In this document: positions 31,246 through 37,623 of the stretch, one piece after another | Numbering within the stretch: the first letter of the stretch is position 1 | How the letters are laid out: every line of letters starts with the position of its first letter | Source: an uncultured Oscillospiraceae bacterium | GTDB taxonomy: Bacteria > Bacillota > Clostridia > Oscillospirales > Ruminococcaceae | Assembly (NCBI GenBank): GCA_964536085.1 | Contig: CAZHWR010000003.1 | Span: 1,540-65,539, forward strand | Length of the DNA stretch: 64,000 bases | Direction of reading: 5' to 3' | Program-made: the position numbers and the translations under genes | Notes under the pieces: generated by a model | What the model saw: the letters and a program-made list of their open reading frames with translations, nothing else | Database searches by the model: none | Told to the model about the DNA's origin: nothing

Positions 31246-33282
31246 TTAATCTCTCATCGTCAATATCTTAAGCGGGTCGTACCGCAGGACAGATATTATC
31301 GCAACGCATCCCGCGGCGAGCGTCAATATAACGCCCACGAGCATAAGCTGTGCCACCACCTTGAAGTTGGTCGCCGAGGTAACGGAGGTTATGTAATCAG
31401 CTTGCTGATTTCCGAAGCCTCCTTTTGAAAAACCGCTTTCAGAGCCTCCGCGTCCAAAGTTTCGTTCCTGATTTTCCTGTGTGGTTTGGGAGGTGGAGAT
31501 TTGATTTTCAAGCAGGGCGTTGGTTATCGGCACCGAAGCAGTCGCACCGATTCCGGTTCCTATTATAATAGCGATAAATGTTACGATGAAGATCTCGCTT
31601 AAAAACTGAAGCGAGATTTTGCACTTTTTCATTCCGATAGCGGCGAGCACGCCTATTTCGTATTTGCGTTCACGAATATTGAATATATTCAGAACAATAA
31701 GTACTATAGCGCCTATACCTAAAACAATAAGCAAAAAGTATGTTGCAAATGTTCCGAGTGTTTCGAGCGGAGCTATTTTGCTGTCGAACGAGGAAACATC
31801 GGTCGATGAGATGGTGTAGTCGTCCGTAAGACCGAGCTCTGTCGCCTGTTCTTCAAATTTCTCGTAGTCGTCAAGACCCGCAAACACATATGTGCCGCTT
31901 TCCTGCTCACGAAGCGCGGTAGAGGATGTTCTTCCTGTGTCCTCTTCGGTTTCAACAGTTTCGTTTTTGATAGACGCATTTGTAATCTTTTTTAGCGCAG
32001 GATAGCTCATATAAATCTGGTTAGCGGAATCCTGCGAGGTGGAAAAGCCCTGCATTTGGGTGCTGTCGGTTGCGGACGCTTCGGAGTCGGTGTAGATGCC
32101 GACGATCTCGAGCTTGATTACTTCGTCCTCATCATTTGGGTTTACAAGCTTTATGGCTTTTCCCACCTTGAGATTGTTATATGTGGCAAGCTCGCTGCTT
32201 ATGATGCAGACCTTATCTTTGGATTCTACGTCGAAAACCTCTCCGTCGGTAATTGTTTTTGTACCTTCGGTGAAGTCGGTCATTGCGGAAAGAGAGCTGT
32301 ATCCGACAACGGTAAAGTCGCCTTGCATTCCCATAATACCGGCCGCAAAAGCGCTGCGATCAATGTTCCCTCCGCCTATGTCGCCGACAATTGCACCGTC
32401 TGTAATGCCTGTGTCTGGAGTTGTGCCGTTTGCACTGCCGCCGAAGCCCGAGCCGCCGTTACTTGCACCGCCGCTTTTGCCGTTACCGCTGCCGCCGCTT
32501 CTGCCGTTGCCGCCTGCAAAGCCGTCTGAGCCGTCGGACGGCGGCGTATTGCCGCCTGAATTACCGGGAGCGGACGGTCTGCCGCTTCCGGACGAGTTTC
32601 TTTCGGATGACGTGCTTTCGGAGGATGTGTTTGCTTCAGAGGAAGCGGTTTCCTCCGACTGCGTCTGTTCGCTTGATGTTTCACTTTCTGACGATACCGA
32701 TTCCTCAGAGCTTGCGGCCTCATCGGCTGTTTCGGTGCGGAGAACAGCTCCTGCGGCAGTTTCGGTGTTTGTTGCCATATTTGTGACGGAAACTCCTCCG
32801 TATGCCGATGTGGACGCTTTACTTGCAGTGTTCGAAGAGCTTGAGCCGGAGCCGCTTGAAGATGAACTCGACGAGCTTGTGCCGTCATCGTCATCGCTGT
32901 CTTGTTCGATTCCGGTTGTATCGACCGGTTCAAGCTTGCCGCCGGCGTTCATAGCGGTGGTGAGGGTGTAGTAAAAATCCTCTACGCATTCCGCTTCGGC
33001 GTATTTTTGTAAATCGTCGATAGTGAGCGATTCAATGTTCTGCATGTTTTCCATCATTTCAGAACGGTCGGAAGCGTTGTTCATTATTTTTTCTCTGTTC
33101 ACCGATATCTGGGCGGTGATTTTAATGCCTGAAAGCGCCTGTTCGCGCGCGGTAGCCGATGCCTGTTTAATCGAAAGCGCAACGCAGCTCGACGTTGCTA
33201 TTGCAAGCACGATTATGCCGATTAAAATATTCCGCCCTTTTGACCGAATAATGTTTCGCAGTGCATTTTTTAAAATATACAT
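31246..33282 (-). CDS. ABC transporter permease, FtsX/MacB type, with ~165-aa Ser/Gly/Thr/Glu-rich low-complexity insert in the extracytoplasmic domain
   Basis: N-terminal TM (RNILIGIIVLAIATSSCVAL), a large extracytoplasmic domain and a C-terminal FtsX 3-TM bundle. Low-complexity run roughly at residues 127-290. Confidence 0.85.
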   Translation of the reverse strand: MYILKNALRNIIRSKGRNILIGIIVLAIATSSCVALSIKQASATAREQALSGIKITAQISVNREKIMNNASDRSEMMENMQNIESLTIDDLQKYAEAECVEDFYYTLTTAMNAGGKLEPVDTTGIEQDSDDDDGTSSSSSSSSGSGSSSSNTASKASTSAYGGVSVTNMATNTETAAGAVLRTETADEAASSEESVSSESETSSEQTQSEETASSEANTSSESTSSERNSSGSGRPSAPGNSGGNTPPSDGSDGFAGGNGRSGGSGNGKSGGASNGGSGFGGSANGTTPDTGITDGAIVGDIGGGNIDRSAFAAGIMGMQGDFTVVGYSSLSAMTDFTEGTKTITDGEVFDVESKDKVCIISSELATYNNLKVGKAIKLVNPNDEDEVIKLEIVGIYTDSEASATDSTQMQGFSTSQDSANQIYMSYPALKKITNASIKNETVETEEDTGRTSSTALREQESGTYVFAGLDDYEKFEEQATELGLTDDYTISSTDVSSFDSKIAPLETLGTFATYFLLIVLGIGAIVLIVLNIFNIRERKYEIGVLAAIGMKKCKISLQFLSEIFIVTFIAIIIGTGIGATASVPITNALLENQISTSQTTQENQERNFGRGGSESGFSKGGFGNQQADYITSVTSATNFKVVAQLMLVGVILTLAAGCVAIISVLRYDPLKILTMRD

Positions 33283-33983: not shown

Positions 33984-34105
33984 ATCGGTTTGCTCTGACA
34001 ATTATAAAGCGGAGTCCGGCAAAGAGTTTGTTTATATAATGTAACCTAATGAACAGCCCCGTCATAAAATAATGTGTACGCAAACCATCGCGTTTGGAGG
34101 AAAGT

Positions 34106-34498
34106 ATGATGGATACGACTGTTTTGATTGCCGGAGGGGATAAACGGCAGATTTATGTGGCGAGACTGCTTGCGGCGGATTATAAGGTTTATGCAATCGG
34201 TCTTGAGGATTCTTTCGGCGACGTTATCAATATAAATTCTCTTTGCGAGCTTAGCGTTAAGCCCGACATTATCATTTTCCCGATTTTGTCGAGCGTGGAT
34301 AATGAGCATGTAAACATGCCGCTGTCGGATATCACGCTCAGAATAGAGGACGTTTTGGAATACGCAAAGCATTCTGCCGTTGTTTTAGCCGGGAAGCCGT
34401 GCGCAACGCTTTGCGAGCTTTGCGGAAGAAAAAATCTTAAGCTTATAGATTATTTTGAGCGTGAAGAACTCGCGGTTTTAAACGCAGTACCTACTGCG
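34106..34498 (+). CDS. dpaA: Dipicolinate synthase subunit A, 5' segment (gene split by intervening element)
   Basis: MMDTTVLIAGGDKRQIYVARLL...FEREELAVLNAVPTA matches the DpaA/SpoVFA N-terminal domain. RBS GGAGG sits 5 nt upstream. Beyond 34498 the ORF runs into unrelated element sequence. Confidence 0.9.
34482..34498 (+). repeat. Left copy of 17-bp direct repeat (attL core) ACGCAGTACCTACTGCG
   Basis: Identical to 37127-37143. Internally an inverted repeat, CGCAGTA-CC-TACTGCG. Confidence 0.9.
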
Positions 34499-35360
34499 TT
34501 CGTTTTTTTGCATGTGCCGTGCGGGTTTGAGCCTGTAAAAAAAGCTTTCTTGACACTATCGCCTCATGATGATTATTTATAATTATCCTGTTTTGAGTAT
34601 TTGTGCGGCGTGTATGGTTTAAATAGTCCACTGTTTCCTGTTTTCGGCAGACAAGGTCGCCGCAGTATTTTTCATTTTTCAGCATTTTGCGTATGGTTTC
34701 GGTTTTCCATTCACGTTCCGGGCGGCTGATGCGTTCGGCTATCTGACGCGGATTTAAGCCTTCGTAAACGCGCAGTCTGAAAATTTCCTTAACGGTCTTC
34801 GCCTGCTCTTCGTTGACTGTGAGCACGCCGTTTTTAAGGTCATAGCCGTATACGCCGTTTCCAAAGACAACGCCGCGCTTCATGCTTTGAAGCTGACCCC
34901 ATTTAACCCGCTCGGAGGTTTTACGGCTCTCCTCCTGAGCTATGGTAGAGAGTATGGAAAGCCTCAGCTCGCCGTCTGAGCTTAAGGTATTGATACCGTC
35001 GGACAAAAACAGCACACCGACGCCATGCTGCTTTAAAAGCCGTGTGTATGTAAGCGCGTCCACGGTGTTTCGGGCAAAGCGCGAGACCTCCTTTGTTATG
35101 ATAAGGTCGATTTCACCGCTGAGAGCGCAACCTATCATCTTTTTGAACGCCGTACGTTTTTTGATACTGGTTCCGGTTATTCCGCTGTCGGCGAATATTT
35201 CCGTCAGCCGCCAGTCGGGATTTTTACTAATGCAGTCGTAAAAATATCTTTTCTGCGCCTCAAGCGAATTTGCCTGGTCGGATTTGTCGGTCGAAACGCG
35301 GCAGTAGGCGCAAACGTTAAGCATGGGCGCACAGTCCGATCGGTTTTTCACATAGATCAC
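34491..35360 (-). CDS. Serine recombinase (resolvase catalytic domain plus 'recombinase' domain, with no zinc-ribbon/coiled-coil domain)
   Basis: YCRVSTDKSDQANSLEAQ (catalytic Ser), DSGITGTS, VSRFARN and AQEESRKTSERVKWG. The recombinase domain is ..YGYDL..VNEEQAKTVKEIF...W..ETIRKMLKNEKYCGD...HHEAIVSRKLFLQAQ. The stop TAG lies inside the 17-bp core. The start may instead be at 35351 or 35324. Confidence 0.85.
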   Translation of the reverse strand: MIYVKNRSDCAPMLNVCAYCRVSTDKSDQANSLEAQKRYFYDCISKNPDWRLTEIFADSGITGTSIKKRTAFKKMIGCALSGEIDLIITKEVSRFARNTVDALTYTRLLKQHGVGVLFLSDGINTLSSDGELRLSILSTIAQEESRKTSERVKWGQLQSMKRGVVFGNGVYGYDLKNGVLTVNEEQAKTVKEIFRLRVYEGLNPRQIAERISRPEREWKTETIRKMLKNEKYCGDLVCRKQETVDYLNHTRRTNTQNRIIINNHHEAIVSRKLFLQAQTRTAHAKKRTQ

Positions 35361-35445
35361 CTTTTTGCACGCGCCGACAACGCGCTTTTTGATAAATTTA
35401 TATTTTTTTTAAACGCTTTATATTCGCCCGCCGCGTATTTTGTAT

Positions 35446-35474
35446 TTGACATATGCGCGCTATGATTATAAAAT
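35446..35474 (+). promoter_or_regulatory. SigA-type promoter for the flippase gene, TTGACA-N17-TAAAAT
   Basis: TTGACA at 35446-35451, a 17-nt spacer and TAAAAT at 35469-35474, about 38 nt upstream of the ATG at 35512. Confidence 0.5.
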
Positions 35475-35511
35475 ATATGCAGTATTTACGGCAAAGGACG
35501 GCGGCGTTGAT

Positions 35512-37023
35512 ATGAGATTCAGAAGAAGCGCTTATAATTTAATAGTCGGCGTTTTGTGCCAGCTTGTTATTCTTGCGCTGGGGCTTGTTATTCCGCGGCT
35601 GTTTTTGGTGAACTTCGGCTCGGAAACAAACGGTCTTATTACGTCGATAAACGATATATTCGTTTATATAGCCCTGCTGGAAGCGGGAATCGGCGCGGCG
35701 ACTGTGCAGGCGCTTTACAAGCCTATTGTAAACGGGGATAAAAACAAGATAAACGAAATACTTTCAGCTACGTCATTTTACTATAAGCGCACGGGCGTTA
35801 TATATTTTATTGTGCTTTTGCTGTTTGCGTTTGTCTACCCGCTTATGCTGGATACGTCGATAGATTATAAAACCGTTGTGCTGGTCATCTTTTTCACCGG
35901 TATAGGAAACGTTATCAATTTTTTCTTTCAGGGCAAGTATAAGCAGCTGCTTTTGGCGGAGGGAAAGGCTTATATCATAACGATAATATCCTCCGCGGCT
36001 AATATTATTGCCAGCGTTTCAAAAATCGTTCTTATACTTTCGGGATTTGATATAGTTGCGGTGCAGACGGTGTATTTTGTACTGTCGATGTTTCAGATGG
36101 CGTTTTTTGAAGCGTACATCAGGCGCAACTACAAATGGCTCAATTTAAAGGCGACCCCGGATTACGGCGCAATATCCCAGAAAAACGCGGTCCTTGTTCA
36201 TCAAATCAGCGGAATCGTTTTCAAGAACACCGACGTTGTTATACTTTCTCTTGTCTATGATTTGAAGATGGCGAGCGTATATATAATGTACAACCTTATC
36301 TTCAATGTCATGGAAAATTTTATTACAACGATCAACGACAGTGTTGTAGCGGCGCTTGGACAGGAGTATAACAGGGATAAAAACAGCTATGCGAAGCTTT
36401 ACGATTTTTACGAGCTGGGTTATTTTGCAATGTGTTTTATTATATGTACGGTCGTTTATGCGATAATAATCCCGTTTATGCGGCTTTACACGGCGGGAGT
36501 CACCGATATCAACTATTTTATCGACTATCTGCCGCTTGCATTTGTCATAATGAAATTCTTAAATTGGTGCAGGACTCCGTCTGCATACACAATAAATTTT
36601 GCGGGTAAATTTATCGAAACAAGAAAAAAGGCGCTCACGGAAGCGGTCATCAACATAGCCGTTTCGCTCGTTTTAGTAAAGCCTCTTGGTATTTTCGGCG
36701 TTGTGGCTGGGTCGGCGGCGGCGTTTTTATACAGCGCGGTTTATTCGATATGGTATGTTAACGCAAAGCTTATTGACTTAAACTATAAAAAAACCGTGTT
36801 CAGATGGGTTGTTTTTATTGCGGCGTTTTTCGCGTTTTCATTCGTGCTGTCGCATATAAGCGTGGAAATAAGCGGTTATTTTACGCTTGTTTTGTTTGCG
36901 GCGGCGGTCGGTGTAGCGGCTGTGATTTACTACGCCGCGGTGTGCATGATATTCAGCCGCAAAACTTGTGTAAACTCCGTTAAAGCGGCGTTACAGATTT
37001 TAAAAAATCGAAAATATAGATAA
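35512..37023 (+). CDS. Oligosaccharide/polysaccharide flippase (Wzx-like, MOP superfamily)
   Basis: 503 aa with about 12-14 TM helices. The N-terminal block IPRLFLVNFGSETNGLITSINDIFVYIALLEAGIGAATVQALYKP is typical of EPS/teichoic Wzx flippases. Confidence 0.75.
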   Translation: MRFRRSAYNLIVGVLCQLVILALGLVIPRLFLVNFGSETNGLITSINDIFVYIALLEAGIGAATVQALYKPIVNGDKNKINEILSATSFYYKRTGVIYFIVLLLFAFVYPLMLDTSIDYKTVVLVIFFTGIGNVINFFFQGKYKQLLLAEGKAYIITIISSAANIIASVSKIVLILSGFDIVAVQTVYFVLSMFQMAFFEAYIRRNYKWLNLKATPDYGAISQKNAVLVHQISGIVFKNTDVVILSLVYDLKMASVYIMYNLIFNVMENFITTINDSVVAALGQEYNRDKNSYAKLYDFYELGYFAMCFIICTVVYAIIIPFMRLYTAGVTDINYFIDYLPLAFVIMKFLNWCRTPSAYTINFAGKFIETRKKALTEAVINIAVSLVLVKPLGIFGVVAGSAAAFLYSAVYSIWYVNAKLIDLNYKKTVFRWVVFIAAFFAFSFVLSHISVEISGYFTLVLFAAAVGVAAVIYYAAVCMIFSRKTCVNSVKAALQILKNRKYR

Positions 37024-37058: not shown

Positions 37059-37101
37059 GCGCCCGCCGCGAATCAAATTTTGATTCGCGGCGGGCTTTTT
37101 G
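37059..37101 (+). terminator. Rho-independent terminator of the flippase cassette (15-bp stem)
   Basis: GCCCGCCGCGAATCA / TGATTCGCGGCGGGC followed by TTTTT, 26 bp before the right repeat. Confidence 0.85.
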
Positions 37102-37126: not shown

Positions 37127-37143
37127 ACGCAGTACCTACTGCG
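37127..37143 (+). repeat. Right copy of 17-bp direct repeat (attR core) ACGCAGTACCTACTGCG
   Basis: Identical to 34482-34498. Confidence 0.9.
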
Positions 37144-37623
37144 GAGGGAGCGATCGCGATAGCCGTAGATCGTTTGCCCTTCACATTGTATGGTTCGGAA
37201 TGCATAGTCACCGGATTTGGAAGGATAGCCAAGGTGCTTGTTAGGCTTTTGACCGCGTTCGGCGCGCATGTAACGGTTTCGGTCAGAAAGCAGAGCGATC
37301 TTGCATGGGCGAAAATTTACGGCGCGGATGCGGTTAAAATATCGGGGCTTCCGAAAGCCGCAAAAAACGCGGACGTTATCTTCAACACCGTTCCCGCGGT
37401 ATTGTTTGACAAGCGCACTCTGCAGGTTTTAAAGAAAGACTGTCTTGTTATCGATCTTGCCTCGAAGCCGGGAGGAGTGGATTTCGACGCGGCCAAGGAG
37501 CTTTCGTTAAACACGGTGTGGGCGTTGTCGCTCCCCGGAAAATCCGCTCCTGTCAGCGCGGGCGCGATTATAAAAGACACGATCGGCAATATATTGTCGG
37601 AGTTGGATGAAGAAGAAATCTAA
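37144..37623 (+). CDS. dpaA: Dipicolinate synthase subunit A, 3' segment
   Basis: EGAIAIAVDRLPFTLYGSECIVTGFGRIAKVLVRLL (NAD-binding GxGxxA) ...IDLASKPGGVDF. In frame with the 5' segment across the repeat. No start codon or RBS of its own at the homology boundary. Confidence 0.9.
   Translation, partial: EGAIAIAVDRLPFTLYGSECIVTGFGRIAKVLVRLLTAFGAHVTVSVRKQSDLAWAKIYGADAVKISGLPKAAKNADVIFNTVPAVLFDKRTLQVLKKDCLVIDLASKPGGVDFDAAKELSLNTVWALSLPGKSAPVSAGAIIKDTIGNILSELDEEEI

Follow-up and report, generated by a model that had tools for sequence, protein, structure and literature searches.

A candidate skin-like element in dpaA of an uncultured Oscillospiraceae bacterium encodes a large serine recombinase without a zinc-ribbon domain

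Intervening elements that interrupt sporulation genes have been documented in sigK, spsM, spoVFB, spoVR, gerE and yabG (PMC5595907, PMC10747680, PMC4191935). The skin systems, skin of B. subtilis (SpoIVCA) and skinCd of C. difficile (CD1231, with the factor CD1234), lie in a mother-cell sporulation gene, sigK, and are bounded by short direct repeats. Here we describe an insert with the same properties in dpaA (spoVFA), the gene for dipicolinate synthase subunit A. It is found in a stretch of 64,000 nucleotides, referred to below as the window, from an uncultured Oscillospiraceae bacterium (assembly GCA_964536085.1, contig CAZHWR010000003.1). A segment of 2,645 bp between two 17-bp direct-repeat cores splits dpaA in the window and carries the gene for a truncated large serine recombinase. 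From comparisons of sequence, we interpret this segment, with a probability of roughly 0.6, as a domesticated skin-like intervening element with a minimal excisionase.

Sizes of 2.6 to 48 kb have been described for skin elements, and cotJC of Laceyella sacchari and spoIIID are also reported to carry skin-like inserts (bioRxiv 10.1101/2022.02.25.481979). According to the Figure 2 legend of that preprint, spoIVCA accounts for about 1.5 kb of each skin element, which corresponds to a protein of about 500 amino acids (aa). The skin systems that have been studied rely on a directionality factor or on sporulation-specific expression, whereas in the element in dpaA no such factor was recognised, and its recombinase has neither a zinc-ribbon domain (ZD) nor a coiled coil. 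To our knowledge, the natural large serine recombinases characterised so far all carry both. Two other systems invite comparison. The element vfbin of Bacillus weihenstephanensis KBAB4 is excised during sporulation from spoVFB (dpaB), a gene of the same operon and pathway; as summarised in articles that cite the original description (Abe et al. 2013, via PMC4191935, PMC10747680), it is prophage-like with phage-related genes and lies in the B-subunit gene, whereas the 2.6-kb element described here lies in the A-subunit gene and holds a recombinase gene and one membrane-protein gene. The gin element in gerE of B. cereus ATCC 10987 (GirC, GirX) is likewise not a prophage, is excised by serine recombination and has a 9-bp core within an inverted repeat but, unlike the present element, it is 28.6 kb long, has three recombinase genes and depends on GirX to set directionality (PMC5595907).

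The features of the locus are listed in Table 1. The insert consists of a minus-strand recombinase gene that abuts attL, a 187-bp divergent intergenic region, one cargo gene and a strong terminator-like hairpin; the recombinase and the cargo membrane protein are the only two credible genes in it. The open frame of the dpaA 5' part can be read from a TTG at 34094 and continues into the element as far as 34582. Joining the two parts of dpaA in silico at the core yields a 289-aa DpaA, which aligns colinearly over 97-100% of intact DpaA proteins of 290-294 aa. These intact homologues come mostly from Oscillospiraceae and Clostridiales metagenome-assembled genomes, and the best is 56% identical. 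The reading frame across the junction is kept exactly in all three lineages in which we found the insert (the window, L001/L002 and L003; see below). The order of split dpaA followed by dpaB also recurs in L001-L003, and the same gene order is seen in two element-free loci, L104 and L105. The segment thus shares with skin-like elements its position inside a mother-cell sporulation gene, its att repeats, and the restoration of an open reading frame (ORF) upon excision in silico. The junctions expected after excision are ...TTTTAAACGCAGTACCTACTGCGGAGGGAGC... for attB and ...TTCTGACGCAGTACCTACTGCGTTCGT... for attP.

Table 1. Features of the split dpaA locus, in positions of the 64,000-nucleotide window
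Feature	Position	Strand	Basis
dpaA 5' part, ending ...ELAVLNAVPTA	34109..34498	+	Pfam DpaA_N PF16924, E 2.7e-23
attL core ACGCAGTACCTACTGCG, palindrome CGCAGTA-CC-TACTGCG	34482..34498		exact 17-bp repeat of 37127-37143
Truncated large serine recombinase	34491..35360	-	Pfam, alignment, AlphaFold/Foldseek, dN/dS
Divergent intergenic region between recombinase and cargo	35325..35511		alignment of window, L001 and L003, and promoter scan
Cargo gene, ~503-aa multi-pass membrane protein; maximal ORF from TTG 35440	35512..37023	+	conserved in L001-L003
Intrinsic-terminator-like hairpin 3' of cargo, 16 pairs (11 G-C) and T run	37061..37100	+	terminator scan
attR core ACGCAGTACCTACTGCG	37127..37143		exact repeat of attL core
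dpaA 3' part, EGAIAIAVD...ELDEEEI, then stop; NAD-binding domain	37144..37623	+	Pfam 2-Hacid_dh_C and related families
dpaB (spoVFB), intact, downstream of split dpaA	37789..38358	+	Pfam Flavoprotein PF02441, E 1.5e-24

The recombinase consists of a catalytic domain, helix E and a recombinase domain (RD), and ends at the boundary between RD and ZD. Pfam matches on the 289-aa ORF are to Resolvase (PF00239, residues 17-164, E 7e-30) and Recombinase (PF07508, residues 184-280, E 2.5e-19), and the same search gave no match to Zn_ribbon_recom (PF13408). The protein stops 11 residues past the LFLQAQ helix, where its relatives go on with RYxFSGKIKCGxCG. In an alignment with 18 relatives, the invariant columns include those of the catalytic motifs YCRVSTD and SRFARN. 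The best NCBIfam matches are to CcrB, CcrA and XisF, over their first ~280 residues. The catalytic domain matches the structures 3g13, gamma-delta resolvase and TP901-1, and an AlphaFold model of the protein superposes in Foldseek on the first ~290 residues of the SPbeta integrase SprA (9dxd, 9dxh), on a fragment of phiC31 integrase comprising the catalytic and recombinase domains (4bqq), and on Bxb1 (9iu2). SprA, phiC31, Bxb1 and A118/Listeria innocua (LI) integrase share with it the fold and the order of these domains, and also a site that is palindromic around a non-palindromic dinucleotide. Thus, of the parts of a large serine recombinase, the catalytic domain and an RD following helix E are present, and a ZD with coiled coil is absent. 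Its overall size recalls that of the gamma-delta/Tn3 resolvases and of Hin and Gin (183-190 aa vs 277 aa), which also combine a catalytic domain with one compact DNA-binding domain beside the crossover and act on directly repeated sites in cis. However, the small serine recombinases have a helix-turn-helix of ~40 aa and use accessory sites or an enhancer, whereas here the C-terminal domain is the ~100-aa PF07508 domain, with weak, sub-threshold helix-turn-helix matches inside it and no C-terminal HTH_7 of the small-recombinase type. By descent the protein is a large serine recombinase, its nearest relatives being 445-570 aa long, yet it is without the domain that defines them.

A sequence-only reading of this window had already described a protein with resolvase and recombinase domains but no zinc ribbon, ending at a stop codon within the duplicated core, and the Pfam search and alignment agree with it. 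The TAG is the complement of 34491-34493 and, since it lies inside the 17-bp repeat, the ORF ends at the same point whether the element is integrated or circular. The length given in that reading, 289 aa, holds for the ORF as read from a GTG start but probably not for the product: its homologues start level with M13 (MLNVCAYCRVS), and the actual start is therefore more likely the ATG at 35324, which gives 277 aa. The reading had also seen no coding sequence for a ZD nearby, and this stands for the whole window. In tblastn searches of the 64 kb, the C-terminal parts of 87 full-length relatives found no ZD-like coding sequence, and queries that included 4 full-length enzymes found no second serine recombinase. 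The DNA directly past the stop is the antisense strand of dpaA and therefore leaves no room for the ~200 missing codons.

The cores bear the marks of recombination sites. Their palindrome is perfect and is centred on a non-palindromic CC, the layout expected of a serine-recombinase crossover site; the crossover is presumed to occur at this CC (34490-34491). All four cores of the window and of L001, a second carrier of the insert, are identical at 17/17 positions. The flanks of these cores in the window and L001 match at 9/30 and 12/30 positions on the element side and at 26/30 and 21/30 on the dpaA side. Because the element-side core halves encode no part of DpaA, and are non-coding in L001, their conservation points to a role as recombination sites. 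Conservation of the element arms reaches only ~8-12 bp from the centre, which fits recognition by the RD alone. Canonical integrases, in contrast, read ~25 bp per half-site (PMC3783163), and the present enzyme lacks ~200 of their residues. No accessory repeats were apparent.

In dpaA, the palindrome is embedded in the codons of the conserved N-A-V-P-T-A motif of DpaA. The high-GC carrier L090 has GCGGTG-CC-CACCGC at the same place, and the wobble bases of the motif codons are A,A,T,T in the window (34484-34498) and G,G,C,C in L090 (~385-410). Imperfect palindromes are found at the NAVPTAEG codons in the two element-free dpaA genes (L104, L105), which constitute a very small control. The perfect palindromes of the carriers may thus reflect co-adaptation of the host site and the recombinase. 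The attL palindrome together with TTCGTTTTTTT on the dpaA sense strand (34481-34510, +) scores as an intrinsic terminator, which could stop transcripts from the dpaA promoter that would otherwise run antisense through the recombinase gene. The T run of this terminator is the complement of Lys-Lys codons in the recombinase tail, and is absent from L001.

In two other organisms the same insert, comprising a recombinase gene that abuts attL and a cargo gene for a membrane protein of ~503 aa, separates DpaA_N from the dpaA 3' half. In the first (L001, L002), the recombinase (P0002) is 272 aa long, is 75% identical to that of the window and has no zinc ribbon. In the second (L003), it is 368 aa long (P0003), 68% identical, and has a vestigial zinc ribbon: past the RD it reads YFLSGKIKCEECKK...GWRCKC, with four cysteines (Cys4), and its Pfam match to Zn_ribbon_recom is sub-threshold (22.8 vs 25.3 bits). 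The L003 gene ends with a TAA 2 nt before the core. The L001 enzyme stops right after the RD, and ~69-75 nt of non-coding remnant precede the core, whereas in the window no DNA at all is left between the end of the RD and the core. These genes form a deletion series, from vestigial zinc ribbon (L003) through non-coding remnant (L001) to nothing (window). The L003 intermediate, with a zinc ribbon and no room for a coiled coil, would fit an order in which the coiled coil was lost first. The stop codon inside the core, to which the sequence-only reading gave much weight, is the last step of this series, confined to the lineage of the window, and not a conserved design feature.

Some differences among these loci lie outside the recombinase. 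L002 is 99.97% identical to L001 and is without one C of a C6 run in the dpaA 3' half (981; L001 3841), a frameshift that probably reflects an assembly error, although it could be a genuine inactivating variant. In L003 a pair of ABC transporter genes lies between dpaA and the aminotransferase gene, and this pair is absent in L001. The window itself encodes, at 31246-33282 (-), an FtsX-type ABC permease of 678 aa with a low-complexity insert of ~190 residues, rich in Ser, Gly, Thr and Glu, in its extracellular region.

Selection on the four coding parts was compared by Nei-Gojobori estimates of the ratio of non-synonymous to synonymous substitution rates (dN/dS) between the window and L001. 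With synonymous sites near saturation in this pair (pS 0.59-0.70; fully saturated against L003), the ratios are 0.14 for the recombinase, 0.08 for the cargo, 0.15 for the dpaA 5' half and 0.12 for the dpaA 3' half. Purifying selection has therefore preserved the recombinase, the cargo and both halves of dpaA through a long shared past, and these parts have diverged to a similar degree at non-synonymous sites, as parts inherited together should.

Loss of the ZD is not confined to dpaA. In metagenome contigs, a scan found 80 loci that encode relatives with 49-59% identity to the window enzyme. Most of these nearest relatives adjoin a fragment of cotJC, a spore coat gene of the Mn-catalase type that is split between DIGTEE and LGHLEM, and most of the enzymes are 445-570 aa long. 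A few relatives are linked to dpaA, namely L049 (at least 508 aa, running off its contig), L090 (464 aa) and L091, and in a neighbour-joining tree without bootstrap the dpaA-linked enzymes group together. L049 occupies the same dpaA site with different cargo (surface proteins). Full-length dpaA-targeting elements therefore exist, as L049 illustrates, and the window enzyme is a reduced form of such a recombinase.

Among the cotJC elements, too, there are ZD-less recombinases of 279-293 aa (P0040, P0007, P0060, P0097, P0117, P0095 and relatives). They end 56-70 residues past the NEKYCGD motif, whereas their full-length relatives (at least 437 aa) continue for at least 215 residues. The nearest neighbour of each short lineage over the shared region is a long protein, by margins that are clear for some (87.6% vs 79.7%, 70% vs 64%, 76% vs 70%) and small for others. 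No ZD remnant was found downstream of the short forms, from which we excluded L101, a frameshifted full-length gene with its ZD coding sequence in another frame. The short clades themselves show dN/dS of 0.06-0.23 while dS is still unsaturated (0.13-0.69), so selection has gone on since the truncation. Among elements with both junctions visible, those of the short form span 2.2-4.95 kb, and those with long enzymes 4.6-4.8 kb or >7.5 kb (lower bounds). ZD loss is thus recurrent and goes with shrinking of the element. We count ~8 verified ZD-less lineages, a number that is approximate because the tree has no bootstrap support.

The cotJC elements are very common in metagenomes of gut and other Clostridia (L011-L101, metagenome and Logan loci), with examples at L018:3755-5985, L015:3702-5983 and L051:5718-10492, and their cores are ~10 bp long, e.g. 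GGTACAGAAG. L017, considered as a 1-kb element with only a recombinase gene, was rejected, the gene beyond the recombinase being a chemotaxis receptor and not cotJC. Two unverified faecal-virome records named 'Bacteriophage sp.', MT839280.1 (L102) and MT837874.1 (L103), each combine a fragment of cotJC with a full-length recombinase; both are linear pieces of bacterial chromosome, and not excised circles or phage genomes. Many full-length (543-569 aa) cotJC recombinase ORFs extend 40-110 bp past the junction into antisense cotJC (e.g. L022:2923-2965, L024:7581-7692, L056:2702-2822). Their last residues are thus encoded by the host and would change on excision, an arrangement reminiscent of phages whose attP is located within a gene.

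From the anatomy, conservation, selection and stepwise loss described above, we infer a mechanism whose catalytic activity, timing and independence of helpers are put conditionally here. The ancestor would have been a dpaA-targeting large serine recombinase, which lost the coiled coil and most of the zinc ribbon first, and then the whole ZD along with the DNA between the RD and the core. The 277-aa protein that is left is probably still a working enzyme. Its dimers would bind CGCAGTA-CC-TACTGCG through the RD alone, attL and attR would be brought into synapsis by a tetramer of catalytic domains, and strands would be exchanged at the central CC. The element would then be released in circular form and leave behind an in-frame dpaA upstream of dpaB, presumably during sporulation in the mother cell. 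Loss of the ZD would be tolerable if the RD bound the symmetric core well enough and the sites were close (2.6 kb, in cis).

The role of the coiled coil in characterised integrases bears on this proposal. Coiled coils help attP and attB dimers to pair and, on attL and attR, lock an inhibited state until a directionality factor acts (PMC3783163; PMC5499577). LI integrase without its coiled coil gave some attL x attR deletion product in vitro in the absence of the factor, whereas the wild type gave none (PMC5499577). With no coiled coil to block attL x attR recombination, no element-encoded directionality factor would be needed, and no small ORF in the element was recognised as a candidate for one. 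An element left only with the task of exiting the chromosome of a terminally differentiating cell would require neither integration nor the coiled-coil lock. We tentatively propose, giving it somewhat less than an even chance, that the ZD-less descendants of ~275-300 aa are autonomous, factor-free excisionases that read a palindrome of ~20-25 bp, and that they are a recurrent end state of domesticated elements in sporulation genes (dpaA, and cotJC in many gut Clostridia).

Several points weigh against this proposal, and some of them against excision altogether. In the structure of LI integrase with attP, it takes both the RD and the zinc ribbon to cover the 25-bp half-site, and about half of each such half-site is contacted by the zinc ribbon in the enzymes characterised (PMC3783163); coiled-coil-less LI integrase is also inefficient (PMC5499577). 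That the protein is under purifying selection indicates a function, but not necessarily unaided recombination of DNA. Truncated TnpX and phiC31 integrases without this region bind DNA poorly. Furthermore, the element could be retained over the long term only if excision took place in the mother cell alone, and no sporulation promoter could be assigned. In the alignment of the window, L001 and L003 the intergenic region contains a partly conserved block, TTATAAT...TATGTCAA, and the promoter scan gave a putative sigma-70-like match on the minus strand, TTGCCG-18-TATAAT; a sigma-E or sigma-K promoter upstream of the recombinase was rejected, since only a loosely CATA-like block and the sigma-70-like match were present. 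Finally, the search for an empty site or excised form found no close intact dpaA, the best intact match being the 56% identical one noted above, and the attP junction had no match in IMG/VR.

Some of these points would be met if the truncated protein were functional but not autonomous, and excision needed a partner encoded outside the window. This could be a full-length paralogue in mixed tetramers, a host protein that binds or bends DNA, or an activator specific to sporulation and encoded at an unlinked locus, which would set the timing as well. XisF provides a precedent for an enzyme that needs extra factors. So does GirC, which acts with GirX (PMC5595907), and COG1961 paralogues are often numerous in clostridial genomes, with as many as 26 (bioRxiv 10.1101/2022.02.25.481979). 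The ZD is important for DNA binding and synapsis in the enzymes that have been studied (PMC5499577; PMC3783163), and no sporulation promoter or regulator is visible in the element. However, the 64 kb contain no second recombinase or ZD-like ORF, and conservation at the att sites is limited to the short inner palindrome, with no outer motif for a partner bearing a ZD. The same loss has also recurred in different organisms and in two target genes, and a suitable helper would have been needed each time, which makes a partner less economical. On balance we hold dependence on a partner to be unlikely, while taking it seriously. A different account is that the element no longer excises, the recombinase being kept for another role such as DNA binding or regulation, and DpaA working as two separately made polypeptides or being dispensable owing to a different route to dipicolinic acid. 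The split falls near the boundary between DpaA_N and the NAD-binding domain, gene callers find ORFs for both halves of dpaA, and some clostridia make dipicolinic acid without DpaAB; the failure of the intact-DpaA and IMG/VR attP searches to find an excision product points the same way. Yet the element-side core halves are 100% conserved in spite of saturated synonymous sites and diverged adjacent DNA, the catalytic Ser and Arg motifs are intact, the reading frame across the junction is exact in three lineages, and no ribosome-binding site or conserved start is evident for the dpaA 3' half. We consider loss of excision improbable.

The sequence-only reading had offered two outcomes, a naturally minimal recombinase or an immobilised element with a dead dpaA. 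Conservation of the truncated gene in three lineages under purifying selection, and the similar truncations in related elements, support the former. The latter finds no support in the dN/dS of the dpaA halves (0.12-0.15), the perfect cores and the colinear joined protein, and we reject it on the grounds of purifying selection and invariant catalytic motifs. That reading had also allowed for a sequencing or assembly error that, once corrected, would restore a longer ORF. Frameshifts of this kind, or recent nonsense mutations, do occur in the family, as in L101 and in the 1-nt homopolymer indel in dpaA of L002. Here, however, only antisense dpaA follows the stop, no ZD-like sequence is present in any frame, and independent assemblies from other samples show the same short architecture, so that an artefact is effectively refuted. 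The interpretation that we favour is thus still that of a domesticated element with a minimal excisionase.

The cargo protein had no match in Pfam, NCBIfam or PDB profile searches. Its homologues in L001-L003 are 68-78% identical, and a search with the cargo over one genome per species for close relatives of the element gave only distant homologues (38-48% identity) in other contexts. In Bacillus marasmi, a 46%-identical homologue lies inside a glycosyltransferase cluster of the order GT4-Wzy-GT4-GT2-X-GT2. Because of this genomic context, and on that ground only, we suggest that the cargo is a putative Wzx-like polysaccharide flippase of a family not previously recognised.

We found no report in the literature of an element in dpaA (spoVFA), nor of natural ZD-less enzymes of this family in such elements; subscription papers were incompletely covered, and absence in this case is not proof. 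For elements in cotJC, one remark was found, that on Laceyella sacchari.

If the element is excised as proposed, dpaA joins the sporulation genes under the control of excisable inserts, and the observations indicate that cotJC inserts are common in gut Clostridia. They also offer a clear picture of reductive evolution, from a mobile element to a developmental switch of the host, in which selective constraint has persisted through the repeated loss of a domain considered essential for site recognition and directionality. If a lineage lacking the ZD functions, it would define the minimal functional core of large serine recombinases. If the ZD-less enzymes are indeed autonomous excisionases, the zinc ribbon and the coiled coil would be dispensable for catalysis and would serve mainly integration and directionality, which would favour the structural view of the coiled coil as mainly a block to excision. 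Compact enzymes of ~280 aa that act on short sites might then also become tools for genome engineering.

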